Virus record (IMG/VR): IMGVR_UViG_2874956758_000001
Reading direction: 5' to 3' (one strand)
DNA from: a virus
Taxonomy: Duplodnaviria; Heunggongvirae; Uroviricota; Caudoviricetes
DNA: 35,721 nt
Shown piece by piece: positions 1-34,359 of this stretch. Within the stretch, counting starts at the first letter, position 1; every line of letters begins with the position of its first letter. Position numbers and translations under genes: made by a program. The notes under the pieces are model-generated. The model saw nothing but the letters and a program-made list of their open reading frames with translations, was not told the origin of the DNA and did no database searches.

Positions 1-396
1 TTAAGGGACACAGCCTAAATCACGATTGATACTCGAAGGTTTAATACCCTGACTTCTTCGGGTGGCGCAGTACTGGCTGATAAGCGATTTCGTAATTTGA
101 AATGCGCATGGGTCATTCGTTATTTTTGTGAAGATTTCAATTTTTCCAAGATTAGATCTCCCATGCTCTTCGTGTTTACCCTTTAAATCCCACCAGATCT
201 GTGTCAGCTCCGACAGACGTCGCTTGTCTGTTGGTTTTGATAGCCATTCTTTATTGTGGTGGTTGTACAACGTGTATTTCTCGAAAGCGACAGCTTCGCT
301 TTTCTTATCAAACTTCCTACGGATGCGTTTTCCATTACGTCCAGTAGGGCGGATGTCCACTTCATATCGACCATCATCGAGTTTTTTGATTGCCAT
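1..396 (-). CDS. int: Phage integrase (tyrosine recombinase), N-terminal part only; gene continues beyond the left edge of the window
   Basis: ORF reads off the window start on the minus strand; N-terminus MAIKKLDDGRYEVDIRPTGRNGKRIRRKF resembles the P2 Int arm-binding region; sits immediately next to the C repressor as in P2. Confidence 0.8.
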   Translation of the reverse strand: MAIKKLDDGRYEVDIRPTGRNGKRIRRKFDKKSEAVAFEKYTLYNHHNKEWLSKPTDKRRLSELTQIWWDLKGKHEEHGRSNLGKIEIFTKITNDPCAFQITKSLISQYCATRRSQGIKPSSINRDLGCVP

Positions 397-5620: not shown

Positions 5621-5873
5621 GAACAACGAGCTTGCGAGGCGTTAGGGATGTCGAAATTTCATATGACTGTTCGCTTTAATGCTTAACGAAGTCATGTTGA
5701 GTTAATAACATTGTTTCGTTAAGCGCTGTGTTCCTTGTCGAATAAGTTCACTTCTTCTGGTGTAATATCAGTATCCATTTCTTCGAATGCATCTAAATCC
5801 ACAATTTTTGTTTTTTTCAAAATTGATAGTATTTTCTGTTTGTTTTTATTTTTGGCTGAACCCGGAATCCACT

Positions 5874-6311
5874 CTACATCCCACAGGCCATCAATGGTAA
5901 ATGTTTTTTTTCCTTGAGTTCATCATTTATGCGTTGACATAGGGCTGTTTTGTAATCGCCTTCCCATTGTGTGTGTATCTTCCCTTGAACTCGTTGAAAC
6001 CAAATATCTAACATTTCAGTATTTGGTTGTTTACCTAGTTTACAATGAAGTTGTTGTAACTTGCCAAATTTGAGTTCATCGTCGTCATAAAGGAAGGTCA
6101 AGAGTTTTGCGAAAATAGCCATTCCCACTGGGTAGGTGGTTGGGTTTTTAGCCATGATGCTTGAAACAATTCCAAGCATTGCATCTAGTTGATGCCCACT
6201 ATTTGTGATCTTTTTCTTCCTAAATAATTTTCGCAAGAAACCATTTAAATATCTGACTGTAATTTTGGAGTTTTGATGTTTTAAAGAAAATAAATATATT
6301 GCATACAACAT
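5874..6311 (-). CDS. C-terminal fragment of the Abi-P2-like reverse transcriptase (helical C-terminal domain); frame continues from the upstream RT ORF across an A-run
   Basis: AT-rich 145-aa ORF; its frame is open upstream into the end of the RT ORF, and a third frame continues past its stop to about 5727. Confidence 0.55.
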   Translation of the reverse strand: MLYAIYLFSLKHQNSKITVRYLNGFLRKLFRKKKITNSGHQLDAMLGIVSSIMAKNPTTYPVGMAIFAKLLTFLYDDDELKFGKLQQLHCKLGKQPNTEMLDIWFQRVQGKIHTQWEGDYKTALCQRINDELKEKKHLPLMACGM

Positions 6312-6337
6312 TTTCTGTAGGGAGTTGAACGACCCTT

Positions 6338-7264
6338 CTATAATATATTCTTTTTTGCTGATTTAAGGGAGTGAAGAATGATGTCGTCATGTAGTTCTGT
6401 TTTTCTTGAGTTTAAATCAAGCCCAAACTCACCTAAGACCTCAACCAAACACTTTGAGATTTTGTCCAAATCATCTTTACTGCTTGAAAATATTCGATAA
6501 TCATCTCTGTAGCGAACTACTTTGTAATCCGTTATTTTTTGCTCTTCGGTTTTTTTTCTTAGCTGTAAATCAATTTCGCCTAAAATTAATTCGGCAAATG
6601 TATCCATCAACGTACTACCCAATGGTATTCCGTTTGTCTGATTACTCATCATCATCTGGATATGAGTGTCAATCAATCGTCCTGGGTTATTGTTATTTTC
6701 TTTCTTTTTGGCCTCTTCTTTTGAGATGAATACCCATTCAAAGCTATGAGTGTAAATAGAAGGGTAGAAGTTTGAAATGTCTGTGCTGAACATGAACTCA
6801 TACTCAAGAGCCAATGAAAGACTTTTTTGTTCAAAATCTTCCCACCAGTTTAAAACAGATGCAGCTACGTTTGAGGTGTTCTTTTTGCTCACTGGGGTAC
6901 TTGAGCATAAAAAAAGATCATTAGACTCAAACTCTCTAAATTTATTCCTTATAGCATTCCAGTTGGAAGGGGATGTAATAAGTTTACAAAAATACACGTA
7001 GTACAGAGGATTAATTAGTGTTATTCGTCGCCAGCTATATAAGCCATCTTTGCTGACTAAAACCTCGTAATTTATATTCTTCCCCATCAATGACTTGGAG
7101 TCAGGTTGGAAGTTGATTTTACCTTCATCTATCGCGGAGTTGATTTCTTCAAGCAAGGAAGAAAAATCGACATAACTGGGTAGCTCCAGAGTAGTGTATG
7201 AATCATGCTGCAGAAAATACTTAAGCGCTCTACCAGTAGTTAATTCATAAATCTTTTTCATAAT
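6338..7264 (-). CDS. Reverse transcriptase, Abi-P2 / UG-Abi class (defence-associated RT), N-terminal and catalytic part
   Basis: RT motifs seen directly: FMFSTDISNFYPSIY, GIPLGSTLMDTF, VVRYRDDYRIF (YxDD), LDLNSRKTEL. Probable start MKKIYEL at 7264; the ORF is open to 7387. AT-rich compared with phage core genes. Confidence 0.75.
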   Translation of the reverse strand: MMKKIYELTTGRALKYFLQHDSYTTLELPSYVDFSSLLEEINSAIDEGKINFQPDSKSLMGKNINYEVLVSKDGLYSWRRITLINPLYYVYFCKLITSPSNWNAIRNKFREFESNDLFLCSSTPVSKKNTSNVAASVLNWWEDFEQKSLSLALEYEFMFSTDISNFYPSIYTHSFEWVFISKEEAKKKENNNNPGRLIDTHIQMMMSNQTNGIPLGSTLMDTFAELILGEIDLQLRKKTEEQKITDYKVVRYRDDYRIFSSSKDDLDKISKCLVEVLGEFGLDLNSRKTELHDDIILHSLKSAKKNIL

Positions 7265-7467
7265 TAGTGATTTCTTCTTAAGTTGCGCACAAATAACTAC
7301 CTGTTTTCTATCATGATAACGATGCGAATGCGAGCAATTCAGGAAGTGCATTACTCTGCATCGAAGCGCACGCAAGTCAGAGAACAATAACTGCCTTGCG
7401 ACATCAGGACTGGCGCGCTAGTTGAGTGGTCATGCAACTGCATTAAAACCGCCCCATGAAGCGGGCG

Positions 7468-7655: not shown

Positions 7656-8690
7656 TCAGCCGTTGTCAGTGTCCAGTGAGTAGTTTTTAAAGCGGATGAC
7701 CTCCTGACCGAGCCAGCCGTTTATTTCCCGAATCCTGTCCTGTAACGGGATAAGCTCATTGCGGACAAAGACCTTTGCCACTTTCTCAATATCACCCAGC
7801 GACCCGACGTTCTCCGGCTTGCCGCCCATCAACTGAAAGGGGATGCGGTGCGCGTCCAGCAGGTCAGCGGCGCTGGCTTTTTTGATATTAAAAAAATCGT
7901 CCTTCGTTGCCACTTCACTGAGTGGGATAATTTTAATGCCGTCGGCTTTCCCCTGTGGGGCATAGAGAAACAGGTTTTTAAAGTTGTTGCGGCCTTTCGA
8001 CTTCACCATGTTTTCGCGGAGCATTTCGATATCGTTGCGATCCTGCACGGCATCGGTGACGTACATGATGTATCCGGCATGTGCGCCGTTTTCGTAATAC
8101 TTGCGGCGGAACAGCGTGGCTGATTCATTCAGCCAGGCAGAGTTAAGGGCGCTGAGATATTCCGGCAGGCCGTACAGCTCCTGATTGATATCCGGCTCCA
8201 GCAGGTGAAACACGGAGCCGGGCGTGAAAGGTGTTGGCTCGTTGAAGGACGGCACCCACCAGTAAATATCTTCTTCCACACCACGGCGGGTATATTTTGC
8301 CGGTGAGGTTTCCAGTCTGATGACCTTACCGGTGGTGCTGTAACGCTTTTCCAGAAACGCATTACCGAACACCAGAAAATCCAGCACAAAGCGGCTGAAA
8401 TCCTGCTGGGAAAGCCACGGATGCGGGATAAATGTCGAGGCCAGAATATTACGTTTGACGTAAATCGGGGAGCTGTGATGCACGGCAGCACGCAGGCTTT
8501 TTGCCAGACCGGTAAAGCTGACCGGTGGCTCATACCATCTGCCGTTACTGATGCACTCGACGTAATCCAGAATGTCACGGCGATCGAGTACCGGCACCGG
8601 CTCACCAAAGGTGAATGCCTCCATTTTCGGGGCGCTGGCGGTCATTGTTTTTGCCGCTGGTCGCGGTGTTTTCCCTTTTTTCTTGCTCAT
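7656..8690 (-). CDS. Q: Portal protein
   Basis: 344 aa, the size and position of P2 gpQ next to cos and upstream of P. Confidence 0.88.
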   Translation of the reverse strand: MSKKKGKTPRPAAKTMTASAPKMEAFTFGEPVPVLDRRDILDYVECISNGRWYEPPVSFTGLAKSLRAAVHHSSPIYVKRNILASTFIPHPWLSQQDFSRFVLDFLVFGNAFLEKRYSTTGKVIRLETSPAKYTRRGVEEDIYWWVPSFNEPTPFTPGSVFHLLEPDINQELYGLPEYLSALNSAWLNESATLFRRKYYENGAHAGYIMYVTDAVQDRNDIEMLRENMVKSKGRNNFKNLFLYAPQGKADGIKIIPLSEVATKDDFFNIKKASAADLLDAHRIPFQLMGGKPENVGSLGDIEKVAKVFVRNELIPLQDRIREINGWLGQEVIRFKNYSLDTDNG

Positions 8691-9208
8691 CAGTAAAACT
8701 CCAGAATGGTGGATGTCAGCGGAGTGCTGATACCGGCGGTGAGTGGCTCATTTAACAGGGCGTGCATGGTCGCCCAGGCGAGGTCGGCGTGGCTGGCTTC
8801 CTCGCTGCGGCTGGCCTCATAGGTGGCGCTGCGTCCGCTGCTGGTCATGGTCTTGCGGATAGCCATAAACGAGCTGGTGATGTCGGTGGCGCTGACGTCA
8901 TATTCCAGACAGCCACGGCGGATAACGTCTTTTGCCTTGAGCACCATTGCGGTTTTCATTTCCGGCGTGTAGCGGATATCGCGAGCGGCGGGATAGAACG
9001 AGCGCACGAGCTGGAACACACCGACACCGAGGCCGGTGGCATCAATCCCGATGTATTCGACGTTGTATTTTTCGGTGAGTTTGCGGATGGATTCTGCCTG
9101 GGTGGCAAAGTCCATGCCTTTCCACTGGTGACGCTCAAGTATTCTGAATTTGCCACCGGCCACCACCGGCGGTGCCAGCACCACGCATCCGGCGCATAGT
9201 CTTCCCAT
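8690..9208 (-). CDS. P: Terminase large subunit gpP, C-terminal (nuclease domain) portion, in a different frame from the N-terminal portion
   Basis: This frame reads GKFRILERHQWKGMDFATQAESIRKLTEKYNVEYIGIDATGLGVG; it overlaps the N-terminal ORF, whose translation degenerates into low-complexity sequence in the overlap. Confidence 0.7.
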   Translation of the reverse strand: MGRLCAGCVVLAPPVVAGGKFRILERHQWKGMDFATQAESIRKLTEKYNVEYIGIDATGLGVGVFQLVRSFYPAARDIRYTPEMKTAMVLKAKDVIRRGCLEYDVSATDITSSFMAIRKTMTSSGRSATYEASRSEEASHADLAWATMHALLNEPLTAGISTPLTSTILEFY

Positions 9209-10389
9209 TCTTCCAGCGTGTCGACCATGCAGCGTTGCAGCTCCTCGAACGGGAACACCGATGCCTTGTCGTCAACAAATTCACACATGAACAGGTTTTT
9301 AAAATCGTCGGCGCTGTTTTCGCGTTTGAGCTGCTCAATGTCGAACAGCGTGCAGCCGCCTTTCAGGGCGTCCTCAATGGTGACAATCTGCCGCCACTGG
9401 CCGTCTGCACAGAGAAGACCTCCGGCAAGGGCGTTATGACTGACGTCGATTTCCACGCGTTCGGCGGCGCTGGCGCGTCCCCGGTTGAACAGTTCACCCG
9501 ACCAGAACGGGTAGGCGTCGTGCGCCAGCGTGGACGGGGTGGAGAAATAGGTCGAGCGCAGGTGACTCTGTGAGGCCATACCTGATGCCACCTTACGCAG
9601 TACCTGAAAATTCGGGATCCAGAAAATCTCATCGACGTAAAGGTCGCCGTTATGGCTCTGTGCGGTGTTGGAGTTGGTGCCGAGAAAAATCAGTTTTGCG
9701 CCGTTATTGCCCAGGACAATCGGGTCACCGGTCAGGTCAACGTCAACCAGCCGGGCAAAGGCGATGATGTATTCACGGAACACATACGCCTGCGTTTTAC
9801 TGGCCGACAGAAAAATCTGGTTATGACCTGTTTTCAGGGCGCGCAGCAGCGCCTCGCGGGAAAAATAAAACGTTGCGCCAATCTGGCGGGATTTCAGGAT
9901 ATCGCGGATGCGGTGCTCAAGCCCGGCGCGATACCAGTGCAACTGATAGTCGAAAGACTGCTCAAAGAAAATCTGCTCCAGCTTTTCGATGGCCTCGTCA
10001 CTGAAAAAATTCTTTTTCGGTTTGCGCCGCCCGCCTTTGTTGCGGTTAGCGACGTTCGGATTAAGGTCTGCCTCGTTGCCGGTCTGACTGTAACGGTTTA
10101 CCCGTGCCAGTCGTTCAATCTGGCGTCCCAGCAGGTCAATTTCCTTGAAGTCACCGCCGGTTTTCTGCGGTTTGATGATGAGCTGGGTCAGTCGTGCTTC
10201 CAGACTCATTTCGACACGGCTGATGGGGGCAACGCTGTCCCAGCCGTCGCGCTGTTTCCAGCTCTGCACCGTCGGGCGTTTCATCTGCAACATGGCGGCA
10301 ATCTGCGGCACGGAAAACCCCTGCCAGTACAGCAGCGCCGCCTGACGACGCGGGTCGTGTAAAAGAGTGGTGTCTGTGGTGATGGTCAT
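8956..10389 (-). CDS. P: Terminase large subunit gpP (ATPase), N-terminal portion; frame lost near 9165-9195
   Basis: Probable start MTITTD at 10389 with GAGGT ribosome-binding site. Protein-like up to WEDYAPDA, then WCWHRRWW and Pro/Ser-rich nonsense. Combined span 8690-10389 is about 566 codons, against roughly 590 aa recalled for P2 gpP. Confidence 0.75.
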   Translation of the reverse strand: MTITTDTTLLHDPRRQAALLYWQGFSVPQIAAMLQMKRPTVQSWKQRDGWDSVAPISRVEMSLEARLTQLIIKPQKTGGDFKEIDLLGRQIERLARVNRYSQTGNEADLNPNVANRNKGGRRKPKKNFFSDEAIEKLEQIFFEQSFDYQLHWYRAGLEHRIRDILKSRQIGATFYFSREALLRALKTGHNQIFLSASKTQAYVFREYIIAFARLVDVDLTGDPIVLGNNGAKLIFLGTNSNTAQSHNGDLYVDEIFWIPNFQVLRKVASGMASQSHLRSTYFSTPSTLAHDAYPFWSGELFNRGRASAAERVEIDVSHNALAGGLLCADGQWRQIVTIEDALKGGCTLFDIEQLKRENSADDFKNLFMCEFVDDKASVFPFEELQRCMVDTLEEWEDYAPDAWCWHRRWWPVANSEYLSVTSGKAWTLPPRQNPSANSPKNTTSNTSGLMPPASVSVCSSSCARSIPPLAISATRRK

Positions 10390-10562
10390 GAATACCTCGC
10401 CGTGATGAATACACGGCAAGGCTACTGAGTCGCGCCCTGCGATTCGCTAAGGTGCTGTTGTGTCAGTGATAAGCCATCCGGGACTGATGGCGGAGGATGC
10501 GCATCGTCGGGAAACTGATGCCGACATGTGACTCCTCTAATCACTATTCAGGACTCCTGACA

Positions 10563-14111: not shown

Positions 14112-14393
14112 ATGACAGCAGAAGAAAAAAGCGTCCTGTCGCGTTTCATGATTGGGGTGCTGATTGTTGTCGGCAAGGTGCTTGCCGGTGGTGAACCCAT
14201 CACCCCGCGTCTGTTTATCGGGCGCATGTTGCTCGGTGGCTTTGTCTCGATGGTTGCCGGTGTTGTTCTGGTGCAGTTTCCTGACCTGTCACTGCCTGCG
14301 GTGTGCGGCATCGGCTCCATGCTGGGTATCGCCGGTTATCAGGTGATTGAGATTGCCATTCAGCGCCGTTTTAAGGGCAGGGGGAAACAGTAA
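14112..14393 (+). CDS. Y: Holin
   Basis: 93 aa with hydrophobic segments; size and position of P2 gpY. Confidence 0.8.
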   Translation: MTAEEKSVLSRFMIGVLIVVGKVLAGGEPITPRLFIGRMLLGGFVSMVAGVVLVQFPDLSLPAVCGIGSMLGIAGYQVIEIAIQRRFKGRGKQ

Positions 14394-15743: not shown

Positions 15744-15888
15744 CCCGCAGACGAACGGCGATTTAAGTGCCGATATCCGGCAGCTTGAGAACGCGCTGGC
15801 ACGCTGTGCCAGCCAGGTAAAAATGATTAAACACTGTCAGGACGAAAACGATGCTCAAACCCGACAGCCTGCGCAGGGCGCTGACTGA
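15598..15888 (+). CDS. lysC: LysC, Rz1-like outer-membrane lipoprotein spanin, in the +1 frame overlapping lysB
   Basis: MRTKIFAAGTVLTCLMLCAGC carries a lipobox (LCAGC); Pro-rich body; embedded in and extending past lysB. Confidence 0.7.
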   Translation: MRTKIFAAGTVLTCLMLCAGCTSAPPAPTPVIVPNACPKVSLCPMPGSDPQTNGDLSADIRQLENALARCASQVKMIKHCQDENDAQTRQPAQGAD

Positions 15889-16318
15889 TGCCGTCACGGT
15901 GCTGAAAACTAACCCCGATATGCTGCGGATATTCGTGGATAACGGGAGTATTGCCTCCACACTGGCGGCGTCGCTGTCATTCGAAAAGCGTTACACGCTC
16001 AATGTGATTGTGACCGACTTTACCGGTAATTTTGACCTGCTCATCGTGCCGGTGCTGGTGTGGCTGCGGGAAAATCAGCCCGACATCATGACCACCGACG
16101 AAGGTCAGAAAAAAGGTTTCACGTTTTATGCAGACATCAACAATGACAGCAGCTTTGATATCAGCATCAGCCTGATGCTGACCGAGCGAACGCTGGTCAG
16201 TGAGGTTGACGGTGCGCTGCATGTGAAGAATATCCCGGAACCTCCGACGCCGGAGCCAGTCAATCGCCCGATGGAGCTTTATATCAATGGTGAACTGGTG
16301 AGCAAGTGGGATGAATGA
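15851..16318 (+). CDS. R: Tail completion protein R
   Basis: 155 aa, the size and position of P2 gpR. Confidence 0.8.
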   Translation: MLKPDSLRRALTDAVTVLKTNPDMLRIFVDNGSIASTLAASLSFEKRYTLNVIVTDFTGNFDLLIVPVLVWLRENQPDIMTTDEGQKKGFTFYADINNDSSFDISISLMLTERTLVSEVDGALHVKNIPEPPTPEPVNRPMELYINGELVSKWDE

Positions 16319-16517
16319 GTTTAAGCGTTTTGAAGACCGGCTGACCGGACTGATTGAATCGCTGTCACCGTCTGGGCGTCGGCGACTGAGTGCAGAACTG
16401 GCGAAACGTCTGCGGCAGAGTCAGCAGCGTCGGGTGATGGCACAGAAAGCCCCGGACGGCACACCCTACGCACCACGCCAGCAGCAGAGCGCCAGAAAAA
16501 AAGACCGGTCGCGTTAA
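16311..16517 (+). CDS. S: Tail completion protein S, N-terminal portion; frame breaks at an A7 run near 16494-16500
   Basis: 68-aa ORF ending ...SARKKDRSR; removing one A from the run would read ARKKTGRVKRKMFAKLITS and join the next ORF. Combined span 16311-16764 is about 150 codons, the size of P2 gpS. Confidence 0.7.
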   Translation: MNEFKRFEDRLTGLIESLSPSGRRRLSAELAKRLRQSQQRRVMAQKAPDGTPYAPRQQQSARKKDRSR

Positions 16518-16524
16518 GCGAAAA

Positions 16525-16764
16525 ATGTTTGCGAAACTTATCACCAGTCGTTTTTTGCATATCCGCGCCAGCCCTGAACAGGCATCAATGGAGTTTTACG
16601 GCGGGAAGTCACCGAAAATCGCCAGTGTGCATCAGTTCGGTCTGTCGGAAGAAACCCGGAAAGACGGTAAGAAAAATGATTATCCGGCGCGTCCTCTGCT
16701 CGGCTTTACCGGTGAGGATGTGCAGATAATTGAAGAGATTATCCTGGCTCACCTCGACCGTTAG
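16525..16764 (+). CDS. S: Tail completion protein S, C-terminal portion
   Basis: 79-aa ORF in the frame that the upstream S fragment would enter after a 1-nt change in the A-run. Confidence 0.7.
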   Translation: MFAKLITSRFLHIRASPEQASMEFYGGKSPKIASVHQFGLSEETRKDGKKNDYPARPLLGFTGEDVQIIEEIILAHLDR

Positions 16765-16830
16765 TTGTGCCATTCCCGACACATCATCGTTACATTGCCG
16801 CCGGTATGACCCGGCGGCATCCTTCCCGTT

Positions 16831-19256: not shown

Positions 19257-21446
19257 ATGAGCACAAAATTCAAAACCGTTATCACCACTGCCGGTGCAGC
19301 AAAGCTGGCAGCGGCAACCGCACCGGGAGGGCGGAAGGTCAACATTACCACGATGGCCGTCGGGGATGGCGGTGGTAAATTGCCTGTCCCGGATGCCGGA
19401 CAGACCGGGCTTATCCACGAAGTCTGGCGACATACGCTGAACAAAATCAGCCAGGACAAACGAAACAGTAATTATATTATCGCAGAGCTGGTTATTCCGC
19501 CGGAGGTGGGCGGTTTCTGGATGCGTGAGCTTGGCCTGTACGATGATGCGGGAACATTAATTGCCGTGGCGAACATGGCCGAAAGTTATAAGCCAGCTCT
19601 TGCCGAAGGCTCAGGGCGTTCGCAGACCTGTCGCATGGTCATCATCGTCAGCAGTGTGGCCTCAGTGGCGCTGACCATTGACACCACAACGGTGATGGCG
19701 ACGCAGGATTACGTTGATGACAAAATTGCAGAGCATGAACAGTCACGACGTCACCCGGACGCCTCGCTGACCGCAAAAGGTTTTACTCAGTTAAGCAGTG
19801 CGACCAACAGCACGTCTGAAACACTGGCCGCAACGCCGAAAGCGGTAAAGGCCGCCTATGACCTGGCTAACGGGAAATATACCGCACAGGACGCCACCAC
19901 AGCGCGAAAAGGTCTTGTCCAGCTCAGTAGCGTCACCAACAGTGATTCTGAAACGCTGGCTGCAACGCCAAAGGCGGTAAAGGCTGCGTATGACCTTGCT
20001 AACGGGAAATACACTGCACAGGATGCCACCACGGCGCGAAAAGGGCTTGTCCAGCTCAGTAGCGCCACCAACAGTGATTCTGAAACGCTGGCCGCAACAC
20101 CAAAAGCGGTGAAGTCTGCCTATGACAATGCTGAAAAACGTCTTCAGAAAGATCAGAATGGTGCGGATATTCCGGGAAAGGATACCTTCACGAAAAATAT
20201 CGGTGCCTGTCGTGCTTATAGCGGCGCTTTGAGCACTGAAGCCGGAAACTGGACAACCGCTCAGTTTATTGAATGGCTGGATTCCCGTGGTGCATTTAAT
20301 CATCCGTACTGGATGTGCAAAGGCTCCTGGTCATATGCAAATAACAAAATCATTACGGATACCGGATGTGGTGATATCCACCTGGCTGGTTGTGTCGTCG
20401 AGGTCATGGGAACTAAATCTGCAATCACTATCCGAGTGACCACGCCGACAACATCAAGCGGTGGCGGTACAACCAGCGCGCAATTCACTTACATTAATCA
20501 TGGGGACGGCTACTCCCCCGGCTGGCGTCGTGACTGGAATCGTCAGGGCGACTCAATGACCGGAACGATTAATCAGGATGGCGGAAGCCAGAATGCCTAT
20601 ATGTCTACGGCCTTATGTTCAGGCACCAGAGGCGGCAAAAAATATCTCAGAAAGTTTCGTGGTGGAGAAGGAGACACTATCTGGCATGAAACAGTACAGG
20701 GCGGGGTAGTTCGCTGGGCGACTGGTAATACTGATGCTCAGGAAGAATTATCACTCAGCTCCGCTTATGGTCTCCGTTCAAGAGGTGAGATTACATCAAG
20801 CAGTGCTAATGGTCTGCGCATTGCTTATGGCAATTATGGATTCTTTATCAGGAATGATGGCAGCAGCACTTATTTTATGTTGACTAAATCAGGTGACAGA
20901 TTAGGTACTTATAATAATTTAAGACCACTGATTATAAATGATGCCACGGGTGCTGTATCAATGGGGCATGGCCTGAGTGTTACTGGTGATATTGTCTCAA
21001 GTACCAAAGTACGTGCCGGTAGCGGGAAAAAGTTCACGGTCAGCAGCAGCAATACATCCACGAAGGAAGCTGCATTCAATTTGTGGGGAAACTCAAGTCG
21101 TCCGGTGGTGGCTGAATTAGGTGATGATGCAGGCTGGCATTTTTACAGTCAGAGAAATACAGATAACAGCATCACTTTTGCTGTTAACGGGCAGGTATCA
21201 CCATCTAACTATAGTAATTTTGATTCACGCTATGTCCGGGATATCCGGCTTGGTGGTGCTGCCACATACAAACCTGCGAACAATGGCATGACATGGACAC
21301 ATAAGGCACCGTCCGGGTGTGTATATTCCGGCATTATTGTTCAGGATACCGGCTCAAACTCTGCCGATAACATTGGTGGCGTATATTACAGACCGGTGCA
21401 GAAATACATTAACGGGACTTGGTATAACGGTAAGCGTACAGCCTGA
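19257..21446 (+). CDS. H: Tail fibre protein H, with internal tandem repeats and a C-terminus altered by IS66 insertion
   Basis: 729 aa; the N-terminal region is typical of P2-type fibres; the last codons (GKRTA, stop) lie inside the IS66 left inverted repeat. Confidence 0.85.
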   Translation: MSTKFKTVITTAGAAKLAAATAPGGRKVNITTMAVGDGGGKLPVPDAGQTGLIHEVWRHTLNKISQDKRNSNYIIAELVIPPEVGGFWMRELGLYDDAGTLIAVANMAESYKPALAEGSGRSQTCRMVIIVSSVASVALTIDTTTVMATQDYVDDKIAEHEQSRRHPDASLTAKGFTQLSSATNSTSETLAATPKAVKAAYDLANGKYTAQDATTARKGLVQLSSVTNSDSETLAATPKAVKAAYDLANGKYTAQDATTARKGLVQLSSATNSDSETLAATPKAVKSAYDNAEKRLQKDQNGADIPGKDTFTKNIGACRAYSGALSTEAGNWTTAQFIEWLDSRGAFNHPYWMCKGSWSYANNKIITDTGCGDIHLAGCVVEVMGTKSAITIRVTTPTTSSGGGTTSAQFTYINHGDGYSPGWRRDWNRQGDSMTGTINQDGGSQNAYMSTALCSGTRGGKKYLRKFRGGEGDTIWHETVQGGVVRWATGNTDAQEELSLSSAYGLRSRGEITSSSANGLRIAYGNYGFFIRNDGSSTYFMLTKSGDRLGTYNNLRPLIINDATGAVSMGHGLSVTGDIVSSTKVRAGSGKKFTVSSSNTSTKEAAFNLWGNSSRPVVAELGDDAGWHFYSQRNTDNSITFAVNGQVSPSNYSNFDSRYVRDIRLGGAATYKPANNGMTWTHKAPSGCVYSGIIVQDTGSNSADNIGGVYYRPVQKYINGTWYNGKRTA
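19775..20135 (+). repeat. About three tandem copies of a ~120-bp (40 aa) unit inside H (motif SETLAATPKAVKAAYDLANGKYTAQDATTARKGLVQLSS)
   Basis: Near-identical protein and DNA repeats seen directly; this is a common phage tail-fibre repeat motif. Confidence 0.8.
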
Positions 21447-21499
21447 ACCGTCTGGTCAGAATCTGACGAATTAGACAAAGTGGTGTCCACCAATAAGTA

Positions 21500-21901
21500 G
21501 TGGGAACCAAAGTGTCAGATATGCAGAAAAATGTGACTCCCGGCAGGCGAAAAGGCTGCCCTAATTATCCTCCCGAATTTAAACAGCAGCTCGTTGCTGC
21601 CTCCTGTGAACCCGGGATATCCATCTCAAAACTTGCTCTTGAAAATGGCATTAACGCCAATCTGTTGTTCAAATGGCGACAACAATGGCGCGAGGGAAAG
21701 CTGCTATTACCTTCTTCAGAGAGCCCCCAGCTACTTCCTGTGACTCTCGATGCAGCTGCCGAACAGCCAGAATCGCTCGCAGAGGACCCGGAAACCCTCA
21801 GTATCAGCTGTGAGGTAACGTTCCGGCACGGGACGCTCCGCTTCAATGGCAATGTCAGCGAAAAGCTCCTGACTCTGCTGATACAGGAACTGAAGCGATG
21901 A
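21500..21901 (+). CDS. tnpA: IS66-family accessory protein TnpA (HTH)
   Basis: 133-aa first ORF of the element; exact start uncertain. Confidence 0.7.
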   Translation: MGTKVSDMQKNVTPGRRKGCPNYPPEFKQQLVAASCEPGISISKLALENGINANLLFKWRQQWREGKLLLPSSESPQLLPVTLDAAAEQPESLAEDPETLSISCEVTFRHGTLRFNGNVSEKLLTLLIQELKR

Positions 21902-22245
21902 TCCCGTTACCTTCCGGGACCAAAATTTGGCTGGTTGCCGGTATCACCGATATGAGAAATGGCTTCAACGGTCTGGCTGCGAAAGTACAGACGGCGCTGA
22001 AAGACGATCCCATGTCCGGCCATGTTTTCATTTTCCGGGGCCGCAGCGGCAGTCAGGTTAAACTGCTGTGGTCCACCGGTGACGGACTGTGCCTCCTGAC
22101 CAAACGGCTGGAGCGTGGGCGCTTCGCCTGGCCGTCAGCCCGTGATGGCAAAGTGTTCCTTACGCAGGCGCAGCTGGCGATGCTGCTGGAAGGTATCGAC
22201 TGGCGACAGCCTAAGCGGCTGCTGACCTCCCTGACCATGCTGTAA
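21898..22245 (+). CDS. tnpB: IS66-family Orf2 / TnpB
   Basis: 115 aa; start overlaps the tnpA stop; conserved IS66 Orf2-like sequence ([11 protein letters not shown]...[24 protein letters not shown]). Confidence 0.8.
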
Positions 22246-22294
22246 ATCTCTTTATCCTGGTTGTCACAGAATAAGCCCGGTAAAATACGGGCTT

Positions 22295-23827
22295 ATGAAC
22301 GACATCTCTTCTGACGACATCTTCCTGCTGAAACAGCGCCTGGCCGAACAGGAGATCCACGCCCTGCAGGAAAAGCTGAGCAACCGGGAGCGCGAAATAG
22401 ACCATCTGCAGGCGCAGCTGGATAAACTCCGCCGGATGAACTTCGGCAGTCGTTCCGAAAAAGTCTCCCGCCGTATCGCACAAATGGAAGCCGATCTGAA
22501 CCGGCTTCAGAAAGAGAGCGATACGCTGACTGGTAGGGTGTATGACCCGGCAGTACAGCGTCCGTTGCGTCAGACCCGCACCCGTAAGCCGTTCCCTGAA
22601 TCACTACCCCGTGACGAAAAGCGACTGTTGCCTGCGGCGCCGTGCTGCCCGAACTGCGGCGGTTCACTGAGCTATCTGGGCGAGGATACCGCCGAACAGC
22701 TGGAGTTGATGCGTAGTGCCTTCCGGGTTATCCGGACGGTACGGGAAAAACATGCCTGTACTCAGTGCGATGCCATCGTGCAGGCACCTGCACCTTCGCG
22801 GCCCATCGAGCGGGGTATCGCCGGACCGGGGCTGCTGGCCCGCGTGCTGACCTCGAAGTATGCAGAGCACACCCCGCTGTATCGCCAGTCAGAAATATAC
22901 GGCCGGCAAGGTGTGAAGCTGAGCCGTTCACTGCTGTCGGGCTGGGTGGATGCATGCTGCCGGCTGCTGTCTCCGCTGGAAGAGGCGCTTCATGGCTATG
23001 TCATGACTGACGGCAAACTCCATGCTGATGATACCCCGGTCCAGGTACTGATGCCGGGTAATAAGAAGACGAAGACCGGGCGGTTGTGGGCGTATGTTCG
23101 TGATGACCGCAATGCCGGGTCAGCGTTGGCACCTGCAGTGTGGTTCGCTTACAGCCCGGACAGAAAAGGCATCCATCCGCAGACTCATCTTGCTTGCTTC
23201 AGCGGTGTGCTGCAAGCGGATGCGTACGCCGGGTTCAACGAGCTGTACCGCAATGGTGGGATAACGGAAGCTGCCTGCTGGGCTCATGCCCGCCGAAAGA
23301 TCCACGATGTGCACGTCCGCATCCCGTCAGCACTGACGGAAGAAGCCCTGGAGCAGCTCGGTCAGTTGTACGCCATAGAGGCGGATATAAGGGGAATGCC
23401 GGCAGAGCAGCGGCTTGCTGAACGTCAGCGAAAAACGAAACCGCTGTTGAAATCCCTGGAAAGCTGGTTGCGTGAAAAGATGAAGACCCTGTCGCGACAC
23501 TCAGAGTTGGCGAAGGCGTTCGCGTACGCACTTAACCAGTGGCCGGCACTGACGTACTATGCGAACGATGGCTGGGTGGAAATCGACAACAACATCGCTG
23601 AAAATGCCCTGCGGGCGGTCAGTCTGGGTCGTAAAAACTTCCTGTTCTTCGGCTCTGACCATGGTGGTGAGCGGGGAGCGCTACTGTACAGCCTGATCGG
23701 GACGTGCAAACTGAATGACGTGGATCCAGAAAGCTACCTTCGCCATGTGCTTGGCGTCATAGCAGACTGGCCGGTCAACCGGGTCAGCGAACTGCTTCCG
23801 TGGCGCATAGCACTGCCAGCTGAATAA
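22295..23827 (+). CDS. tnpC: IS66-family transposase TnpC
   Basis: 510 aa; N-terminal coiled coil, Cys cluster (CPNCG...CTQC), DDE-type core; ends just inside the right inverted repeat. Confidence 0.85.
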
Positions 23828-23889
23828 CACATCCCCGTCAATACGGCCCTCGCTGTACGCTTACGTATAACGTGGCGCAGGTATAATTT

Positions 23890-24417: not shown

Positions 24418-24509
24418 GTTGTATGAGCTTACATATCTATTGCGTAGAGTAAAGCATAATCTGACAGTCCGCTCTGTGCCAGAAGCGGACATAGCAGGTG
24501 GATTTGCCC

Positions 24510-25415
24510 CTATATTTCCAGACATCTGTTATCACTTAACCCATTACAAGCCCGCTGCCGCAGATATTCCCGTGGCGAGCGATAACCCAGCGCACTATGC
24601 GGATGCCATTCGTTATAATGCTCGAACGCCTCTGCAAGGTTCTTTGCTGCCGTTAACCCGTCTGGTTTGGGCATGATACTGATGTAGTCACGCTTTATCG
24701 TTTTCACGAAGCTCTCTGCTATTCCGTTACTCTCCGGACTCCGCACCGCCGTGTTCTTCGGTTCAAGTCCCAACATCCGGGCGAACTGGCGTGTTTCATT
24801 AGCCCGGTAGCATGAACCATTATCCGTCAGCCACTCCACTGGAGACGACGGAAGATCGTTGCCGAAGCGGCGTTCCACCGCTCCCAGCATGACGTCCTGT
24901 ACTGTTTCACTGTTGAAGCCGCCGGTAGTCACCGCCCAGTGCAGTGCCTCACGATCACAGCAGTCCAGCGCGAACGTGACACGCAGTCTCTCTCCGTTAT
25001 CACAGCAGAACTCGAACCCGTCAGAGCACCATCGCTGATTGCTTTCTTTCACGGCCACTCTGCCTGTATGTGCCCGTTTCGATGGCGGTACAGCAGGTTT
25101 TCGCTCAAGCAACAGCGCATTCTGGCGCATGATCCGGTAAACACGTTTGGCATTGATCGCAGGCATACCATCAAGTTCTGCCTGTCTGCGAAGCAGCGCC
25201 CATACCCGACGATAACCATACGTGGGCAGCTCTCCGATAACATGGTGTATACGGAGAAGCACATCCGTATCATCAGTGTGACGACTGCGGCGGCCATCCA
25301 TCCAGTCATCGGTTCGTCTGAGAATGACGTGCAACTGCGCACGCGACACCCGGAGACAACGGCTGACTAAGCTTACTCCCCATCCCCGGGCAATAAGGGC
25401 GCGTGCGCTATCCAC
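24510..25415 (-). CDS. insD: IS2 transposase OrfB (DDE integrase-like); expressed as an InsCD fusion by -1 frameshift
   Basis: 301 aa, recognised as IS2 InsD. Confidence 0.9.
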
Positions 25416-25738
25416 TTTTTTGCCCGTCCATATTCAACGGCTTCTTTGAGGAGTTCATTTTCCATCGTTTTCTTGCCGAGCAGGCGCTGGAGTTCTTTAA
25501 TCTGCTTCATGGCGGCAGCAAGTTGAGAGGCAGGAACAACCTGTTCTCCGGCGGCCACAGCAGTAAGACTTCCTTCCTGGTATTGCTTACGCCAGAGAAA
25601 TAACTGGCTGGCTGCTACACCATGTTGCCGGGCAACGAGGGAGACCGTCATCCCCGGTTCAAAGCTCTGCTGAACAATTGCGATCTTTTCCTGTGTGGTA
25701 CGCCGTCTGCGTTTCTCCGGCCCTAAGACATCAATCAT
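25373..25738 (-). CDS. insC: IS2 OrfA (HTH regulator)
   Basis: 121 aa from [13 protein letters not shown]; overlaps the insD start. Confidence 0.9.
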
Positions 25739-25901
25739 CTGTTCTCCAATGACTAGTCTAAAAACTAGTATTAAGACTATCACTTATTTAAGTGATACTG
25801 GTTGTCTGGAGATTCAGGGGGCCAGTCTAGCAGGTGCCAGATGCATTTGTTATTCTTCATTGAATTGAGCAGTATCCTTAACAGGAACTCTGAATACATA
25901 A

Positions 25902-26540
25902 ATGAAGATGAAAAACATGTCTGAAGTGTTGACCCAAGAAAAGCTTATTTTTGTTGCCCAGAGACTAAAGGCCCTCGCGCAGTCAGGCCTGACCTATTCA
26001 AAAGACGTCTTTGACAAGGAACGCTATGAAGCCTTGCGTGAAATTGCCGCTGGACTGCTGAGTTCGCAGTTTGATATTAGCCGCAATGATTTGTTTCATG
26101 TATCGGAAACGGGTTACGCGACGCCCAAAACAGATGTGCGTGCGTTTATCCTGCGTAATAATCGTATTCTGATGGTGAAAGAGGCTGCAGATGGATTATG
26201 GAGTCTTCCTGGCGGATGGGCAGATGTTGGAGATACACCTTCTGAAGCTGTGCGTCGAGAGGTCGAAGAAGAAACCGGATTAAAAGTCAGAGTGACTAAA
26301 CTATTGGGAGTTTGGGATCGTAATCTTCACGGCCATCCGCCTTTACCCTGGCATGTTTACAAGCTGATTTTTCTCTGTGAAGAAGTAGGTGGCAGCCTGT
26401 CAATCAGCCATGAGTCACTCGATGCTGATTTTTTTGATGTCAACGACCTGCCTGAATTGTCGCTTTCAAGAATTGTGCCTGAGCAGATTGCTGTCAGCCT
26501 GAGAGTAGCGAAAGGTGATGAAAAAACATGGTTTGATTAA
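25902..26540 (+). CDS. NUDIX hydrolase with an N-terminal helical extension
   Basis: NUDIX box GGWADVGDTPSEAVRREVEEETG (Gx5Ex7REUxEExGU pattern) in the C-terminal half of a 212-aa protein; first gene of a two-gene cassette in the G-FI variable locus. Confidence 0.8.
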   Translation: MKMKNMSEVLTQEKLIFVAQRLKALAQSGLTYSKDVFDKERYEALREIAAGLLSSQFDISRNDLFHVSETGYATPKTDVRAFILRNNRILMVKEAADGLWSLPGGWADVGDTPSEAVRREVEEETGLKVRVTKLLGVWDRNLHGHPPLPWHVYKLIFLCEEVGGSLSISHESLDADFFDVNDLPELSLSRIVPEQIAVSLRVAKGDEKTWFD

Positions 26541-26563
26541 CTTTCTTCTGCAACCATTAAGGA

Positions 26564-27208
26564 ATGGCAATGATATTCAACGCTAAGGGTTTTTTATTCG
26601 ATATGGACGGTACGCTGGTTGATTCAACAGCCGTAGTGGAAAGCGTCTGGAGAGATTTTTGTGCAGAATACGGTCTTGATTCTCAGGCTGTGATTGCTTA
26701 CGCACACGGGCGGCAAACGATTGATACACTAACGCATTTTATTGGTGCAGGTGAGAAAACCAATAAAATCGCGGCCTCACTCGAAGAGGTTGAAATCAAC
26801 ACGACAGAAGGCGTTACTGAAGTAAAAGGGGCCGCTGCACTCTTATCAAAACTGCCACCGGATAGCTGGGCACTTGTCACTTCTGCAGGCAGAATGCTTG
26901 CCGAAAACAGGATGAAAGCGGCTAATCTCCCCTTACCCATAGTAATGGTGTGTGCAGAAGATGTAATGACGGGAAAACCAAGTCCCGAGGGTTACATCAA
27001 AGCAGCTTTGGCTTTGGGCCTTGAGCCTGGTGAATGCGTGGTATTTGAGGATGCATCTGCGGGTATAAAAGCAGGGCTGGCAAGTGGAGCTTCGGTAATA
27101 GCTGTTCAGCCTGACGCTCTGGGATCATCTGAAGCCCATGCCGTCAGCGAACTGTCTGACATTATGGTCAAGATTTCCGGAGAACGTTTCAATATCATCT
27201 GTGGTTAA
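26564..27208 (+). CDS. HAD-superfamily hydrolase (subfamily IA phosphatase / beta-phosphoglucomutase-like)
   Basis: HAD motif I FDMDGTLVDS, motif II LVTSAG, motif IV FEDASAGIKAG; 23 bp downstream of the NUDIX gene. True start may be the second ATG at 26570. Confidence 0.8.
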   Translation: MAMIFNAKGFLFDMDGTLVDSTAVVESVWRDFCAEYGLDSQAVIAYAHGRQTIDTLTHFIGAGEKTNKIAASLEEVEINTTEGVTEVKGAAALLSKLPPDSWALVTSAGRMLAENRMKAANLPLPIVMVCAEDVMTGKPSPEGYIKAALALGLEPGECVVFEDASAGIKAGLASGASVIAVQPDALGSSEAHAVSELSDIMVKISGERFNIICG

Positions 27209-34187: not shown

Positions 34188-34214
34188 TAAAAAATAAGCC
34201 CGTGTAAGGGAGAT
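34188..34214. other. attR: Prophage right attachment core (P2-type 27-bp att core AAAAAATAAGCCCGTGTAAGGGAGATT)
   Basis: String matches my recollection of the P2 att core; lies between ogr and the first host gene, where attR is expected. Confidence 0.65.
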
Positions 34215-34359
34215 TACACAGGCTAAGGAGGTGGTTCCTGGTACAGCTAGCATTTTATGGGTTATGTTTTTCAGCGAAATGGATGATAACCTTAATAAAT
34301 GCAGCTGTATGTGATCGGTTTCTAAGAATTTTCCATCCGGGAAAAATAATCGAAATTAA

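Follow-up and report, generated by a model that had tools for sequence, protein, structure and literature searches.

Background

Shigella is noted for the expansion of insertion sequences (ISs) and for gene decay. The phage protein gpS is among the tail completion proteins that have been studied experimentally, with a phenotype at the tail-head junction, and for phage P2 it has been established by genetics that gpS is needed to join tails to heads and to make infectious particles (PMC11099176). In the P2 record AF063097, gpS is annotated as 'essential tail gene; tail completion'.

The whole stretch of DNA analysed here, hereafter called the window, is 35,721 nucleotides long and holds a P2-like prophage in which gene S is split at a run of seven A (A7). 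Whether this run reflects a sequencing error or decay had been left open in the original prediction. Lineage mates, a census of homopolymers, the comparison with intact alleles and the sharing of lesions now resolve the question in favour of decay: we put at about 0.9 the probability that A7 is a real, inherited mutation, and that S, in a P2-like prophage of Shigella dysenteriae that is itself decaying, has become a pseudogene and is drifting.

Identity and location of the prophage

Over 20.2 kb, the window shows 100% identity to CP026831.1, which is part of assembly GCA_002950055.1, an assembly of Shigella dysenteriae (PMC12679885). Among 5,426 complete E. coli genomes there was no perfect match to the window sequence, since the window belongs to S. 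dysenteriae CP026831.1.

Judged by its genes, the prophage is P2-like (Peduoviridae, Peduovirus type). Gene calls give the layout int-C-cox-B-A ... Q-P-O-N-M-L-X-Y-K-lysABC-R-S-V-W-J-I-H-G-FI-FII-E-T-U-D-ogr. The order lysB/lysC - R - S - V matches that of P2 (AF063097) and of intact prophages, and the S region is 96 to 97% identical to P2, Wphi, L-413C and others. The prophage lies between a truncated int and yegQ/trhP, beside the gene for the CyaR sRNA, which was the sole match in an Rfam scan (Table 1). A NUDIX hydrolase and a HAD-family hydrolase are carried as cargo. Among the 5,426 complete E. coli genomes, only 22 contain this pair, in no case at less than 99% identity, and the NUDIX hydrolase has a weak PADLOC match to the candidate PDC-S07; the two genes may be uncharacterised hotspot cargo.

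Table 1. Position of the features discussed in the text, in window coordinates
Feature	Position	Strand	Remarks
Integrase fragment	1-396	-	N-terminal part, 131 aa, Int_N; the window begins inside the fragment
RT pseudogene	5719-7387	-	Variable region between A and Q; two 1-nt deletions
P (large terminase)	8690-10419	-	73-bp out-of-frame deletion between two CGGCGC direct repeats, 9190-9195; product of 477 aa, against 590 aa when intact
R	15851-16318	+	Intact, 155 aa, P2_Phage_GpR; overlaps the start of S by 8 nt
S pseudogene	16311-16764	+	P2-type tail completion / virion morphogenesis (gpS); 454 nt, against 453 nt in intact alleles
5' ORF of S	16311-16517	+	68 aa: residues 1-64 of gpS, followed by DRSR and a stop read in the shifted frame; ends ...SARKKDRSR*, stop at 16515-16517; Pfam positions 2-63
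A7 homopolymer	16496-16502	+	Frameshift site of S; A6 in every intact allele examined
3' part of S	16504-16764	+	+1 frame, gpS residues 65-150; Pfam positions 71-147
3' ORF of S, mechanical ORF list	16525-16764	+	79 aa, ATG start, +1 relative to the 5' ORF
Predicted RNA hairpin	16507-16569	+	-19.2 kcal/mol, z = -2.3; A5 at 16521-16525 pairs with T6 at 16551-16556
Private substitution T to A	16676	+	Gives I122N once the frame is repaired; no variation at this site in 80 intact alleles
Private substitution G to A	16728	+	Gives M139I once the frame is repaired; no variation at this site in 80 intact alleles
G+C-rich hairpin	16797-16818	+	GCCGCCGG-TATGAC-CCGGCGGC; read in the sequence; position of the putative O operon terminator of the P2 record
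IS66-family element	21430-23864		Three ORFs (HTH_Tnp_1, TnpB_IS66, DDE_Tnp_IS66); terminal repeats GTAAGCGTACAGC
IS2	24499-25829		1331 bp, 5-bp target duplication GCAGG; just 3' of the tail-fibre assembly gene G
NUDIX and HAD-family hydrolases	25902-27208	+	Cargo, 212 aa and 214 aa; between G and FI, second P2-like variable locus
CyaR (RyeE) sRNA gene	34192-34277	-	Rfam RF00112, 100.7 bits; past ogr at the right end of the prophage, before yegQ/trhP

A frameshift in gene S

The original prediction had described S as two ORFs of 68 and 79 aa and had proposed that deletion of one A would restore a protein of about 150 aa. Both ORFs were recovered, and removal of one A gave a 453-nt ORF encoding 150 aa, which contains the predicted ...SARKKTGRVKRKMFAKLITS... 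stretch. The run had been called A7 correctly, and placed at about 16494-16500, which is two bases to the left of its actual position (Table 1). The identification of the gene as S also held: the repaired protein belongs to Phage_tail_S (Pfam PF05069), which it matches over profile positions 2-147 of 148 (E 1.3e-42; 145.6 bits for a cut-off of 24.3), and its identity is 97% with P2 gpS (AAD03280.1) and 99% with the intact S of E. coli UTAK-3. Taken separately, the two fragments still score 56.7 bits (5' fragment) and 72.7 bits (3' fragment) against the same profile.

Intact relatives are one base shorter over a 581-nt query covering S, and the sole gap in the alignment falls in the A7 run; the split is therefore not a chance pattern. 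The frame shifts after Lys64 and reaches a stop four codons on, so that the C-terminal 86 residues are lost. For the 3' product, gene callers place the start at 16588, which gives 58 aa. R, the tail terminator or tail-to-head joining protein, is encoded directly upstream of S in the late operon, as in P2-like phages. S was nevertheless filed as a pseudogene of Phage_tail_S, and not as a functional member, because its frame of some 150 codons is interrupted at A7.

Beyond the end of S, a G+C-rich hairpin occupies the position of the putative terminator of the P2 O operon, which would make S the last gene of the operon. A simple scan for promoters and terminators around S did not call this hairpin and returned nothing relevant.

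Other lesions of the prophage

S is not the only damaged gene of the prophage. At least three genes, namely S, RT and P, had been predicted to be disrupted at short homopolymers; this proved to be the case for two of them, S and RT. In RT, two 1-nt deletions were found in or beside homopolymers (CCC to CC at 5912, beside a T8 run, and T7 to T6 at 6351), and the gene is a pseudogene. The lesion in P differs: it is the loss of 73 bp between two short direct repeats (Table 1), a microhomology deletion. As for the nature of RT, its intact 514-aa relative matches the PADLOC entry AbiP2, of the DRT class (E 9e-159). The assignment of RT as a retron was rejected, AbiP2 being the best match.

The two IS insertions of the original prediction are real, both with an intact target-site duplication. 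The IS66-family element is flanked by the 8-bp duplication GTATAACG; its insertion point is 14 nt short of the stop codon of the tail-fibre gene H, which it parts from G. The other insertion is IS2. A second copy of IS2, 99.7% identical, is present to the left of the prophage. A third IS hit, by an element of the DDE_Tnp_1 type, splits int in the source genome, immediately left of the window (L013, 17258-18827).

A viable phage would carry a complete and intact set of essential genes; here P, S, the 3' end of H, and int are all damaged. With lesions in P, S, H, int and RT, the prophage is predicted to be dead several times over. Loss of S would be without further effect on phage viability, because the prophage is already dead through the other lesions.

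Real mutation or sequencing error

The main alternative to a real mutation is an artefact of sequencing or assembly, in which case the true run would be A6 and S would be intact. We consider this improbable, although the break does sit in a homopolymer, a context in which such an error could arise. The verdict in favour of a real A7 rests on concordance within the lineage, and not on the run alone.

Gene calls on 9 contigs give the exact 68-aa product of S, and 7 contigs carry a call of the 58-aa 3' product. At least three further sequence sets of this prophage, each 1 to 3 differences away from the window and hence no copy of it, also have A7. Three of these lineage mates were read (GCA_031665835.1, ERR5984615 and SRR364092), and four more similar contigs were counted only. 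GCA_031665835.1 has A7 in S, and aligns to the window over 17.3 kb without gaps and with 3 SNPs; the Logan assembly of ERR5984615 has A7 in S, with 1 SNP over 14.9 kb; the Logan assembly of SRR364092 also has A7 in S, in the same prophage. Both RT deletions and the 73-bp deletion in P are found again in GCA_031665835.1. The P deletion is likewise carried by ERR5984615 and SRR364092, for which the fetched stretches stop short of the RT sites. All lineage members read thus share every lesion within the sequence that they cover, and so give no relative order for the lesions.

The contig of ERR5984615 is 21,468 bp long, and the end that was fetched reaches 28 nt into the IS66-family element. From contig arithmetic, its other end appears to fall approximately at the int::IS junction. 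The contig thus appears to end at IS boundaries on both sides, as would be expected if short reads had been assembled and repeats had limited the contig.

In principle, one systematic error at the run might be common to assemblies this closely related. Against an artefact, the homopolymers of the three lineage mates all agree with the window, except for one site: SRR364092 has A5 where the window has A6 at 14125, a difference in homopolymer length that counts on the side of an artefact. The site (14125-14130) lies in the holin gene, whose product is shortened to 81 aa in SRR364092; either the isolate carries one more real frameshift here, or the sequencing run contains a homopolymer error.

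A census was made of all homopolymers of at least 6 nt in the window. There were 46 of them, of which 42 could be compared with relatives, and 39 of these 42 agreed in length with intact relatives. Among the concordant runs were T8 runs and further runs of A7. The three discordant runs were the run in S and the two RT sites, that is, one insertion and two deletions, and no bias in a single direction was seen. We conclude that the source assembly is not error-prone at homopolymers. Moreover, neither the 73-bp deletion in P nor the IS insertions can be base-calling errors.

Intact alleles were collected for comparison with the window. In the complete E. coli genomes, a 71-nt probe centred on the run matched 811 places (720 genomes), all of them one base shorter: every match aligned at 70/71, and none reached 99% identity. 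The best IMG/VR copies of S were A6 and intact in 80 cases out of 80, and all 74 phage records at 95 to 99% protein identity aligned to the repaired S in one piece. The exact repaired protein of 150 aa was absent among approximately 15 billion proteins, a collection in which both fragments were present.

The unique intact S alleles, 66 in number, had 60 synonymous variable sites and 12 non-synonymous ones. The window S differs from its nearest relative by two substitutions in all, both non-synonymous and both located 3' of the frameshift (Table 1). These two private changes (n = 2) are consistent with relaxed constraint on the out-of-frame segment; they fit a gene that is truly out of frame.

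The same run in unrelated records

A7 in S was also encountered in two unrelated assemblies, L003 (GCA_026134905.1) and L005 (Logan ERR13763635), both approximately 97% identical to the window. In these, the change from A6 to A7 is accompanied by other +1 homopolymer insertions, which argues that the run can be over-called, and this observation favours an artefact. L003 has only +1 homopolymer insertions, three in number, and they include, besides the one in the A run, a change from T6 to T7 55 nt downstream within S (the two S sites are at 10186 and 10241). L005 likewise has only +1 homopolymer insertions, five within 15 kb (at 693, 1967, 4559, 6905 and 7898), by which several genes are broken. 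These insertions, in A, T and G homopolymers, are probably systematic over-calls, and they may create false pseudogenes in the two records.

The idea that L003 and L005 received a single broken S allele by introgression was considered and rejected: in both records, S shows at least 10 differences from the window allele, most of them synonymous, and both private changes are missing. For the same reasons, A7 in these records was not inherited from the window lineage.

The A6 run of S is therefore both a site of biological slippage and a weak spot for sequencing. An A7 call at this run can be trusted only if it is backed by lineage mates and by the other homopolymers, which is the case for the window.

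Possible recoding of the A run

A less probable alternative still, to which we give very little credence, is that the gene is recoded or split: gpS would still be made from the A7 allele, or the 68-aa peptide would be a natural second product. Possible routes on A7 are +1 or -2 ribosomal slippage, transcriptional slippage, and reinitiation at the ATG at 16525, giving two fragments that complement each other. In favour of such a scheme, the stop of the 68-aa ORF lies 7 nt upstream of this ATG, which is in the S frame, and a predicted hairpin starts 5 nt after the run (Table 1). Upon shuffling, 5 of 200 sequences folded as well as this hairpin, and the intact IMG/VR alleles of S gave no conservation evidence for it. 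Seven A's are short for efficient transcriptional slippage in E. coli.

The nearest known case is the dnaX-type -1 programmed frameshift. As in dnaX, intact P2-type S has an in-phase heptamer, A_AAA_AAG (of the form X_XXY_YYZ, at nt 186), followed by a predicted hairpin a few nucleotides downstream, and a -1 shift in intact S would yield a peptide identical to the 68-aa ORF. In contrast to dnaX, the heptamer of S is not conserved in homologues: it is missing at the aligned site in 6 of 6 divergent gpS homologues, in which the basic Lys-Lys motif is retained. Nor is there a constraint on synonymous sites. Among the 66 unique intact alleles, which come from the 80 IMG/VR copies, nt 195, 201 and 207, just behind the run, vary synonymously, and no local excess of synonymous conservation was detected near the run in this set. 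A programmed frameshift in S was rejected: checks of heptamer conservation, the downstream fold and synonymous-site variation, taken together, gave it no support. In addition, the run of the window is A7, and a -1 shift cannot restore S in this allele, where the S frame is +1. The prophage is in any case unable to package DNA, P being deleted. It would thus be most surprising, although conceivable from the heptamer and the hairpin, if intact phages made a little 68-aa gpS, or if slippage on A7 gave some full-length gpS.

Origin of the frameshift and its annotation

Under the preferred reading of a real, inherited mutation, S would have gained one A in an A6 run (codons AGA-AAA-AAG), which became A7. 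Replication strand slippage is the most likely cause of the extra A. Drift in a clonal lineage of Shigella would then have fixed the A7 allele, at a stage when selection presumably no longer acted on the prophage.

The practical consequence is that S should be kept annotated as a frameshifted pseudogene, and not 'corrected', and that the prophage should be scored as defective. The value of the case lies mainly in this annotation and in the warning about the S homopolymer.

Comparison with known systems

After repair, the S protein has the same 150 aa length as P2 gpS (AAD03280.1; UniProt P36934), and its gene has the same place, after R and at the end of the O operon. It differs from P2 gpS in that the S frame in the window is broken after codon 64, and in that its 3' half carries two private non-synonymous changes. 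The P2 gene orf30, located between S and V in P2, is absent from the window, and likewise from intact prophages of E. coli, that of UTAK-3 for example.

Closer still are the intact E. coli prophages found at yegQ(trhP)/cyaR, for instance those of UTAK-3 and VTB97448v. They share with the window the same locus and the same gene order, and their late genes are 95 to 98% identical at the nucleotide level. These prophages keep int, P, S and H, as well as the 514-aa AbiP2-type RT where it is present, whereas the window prophage is damaged in all five.

The lesions found here are those of Shigella reductive evolution, in which several ISs, small deletions and homopolymer frameshifts likewise build up in DNA that is dispensable and become fixed clonally. 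Pseudogenes of this kind, in which a well-known phage gene has been frameshifted, are already known, and the present one is an unremarkable instance: when it is compared with pseudogene formation and IS expansion in Shigella, nothing sets the window apart.
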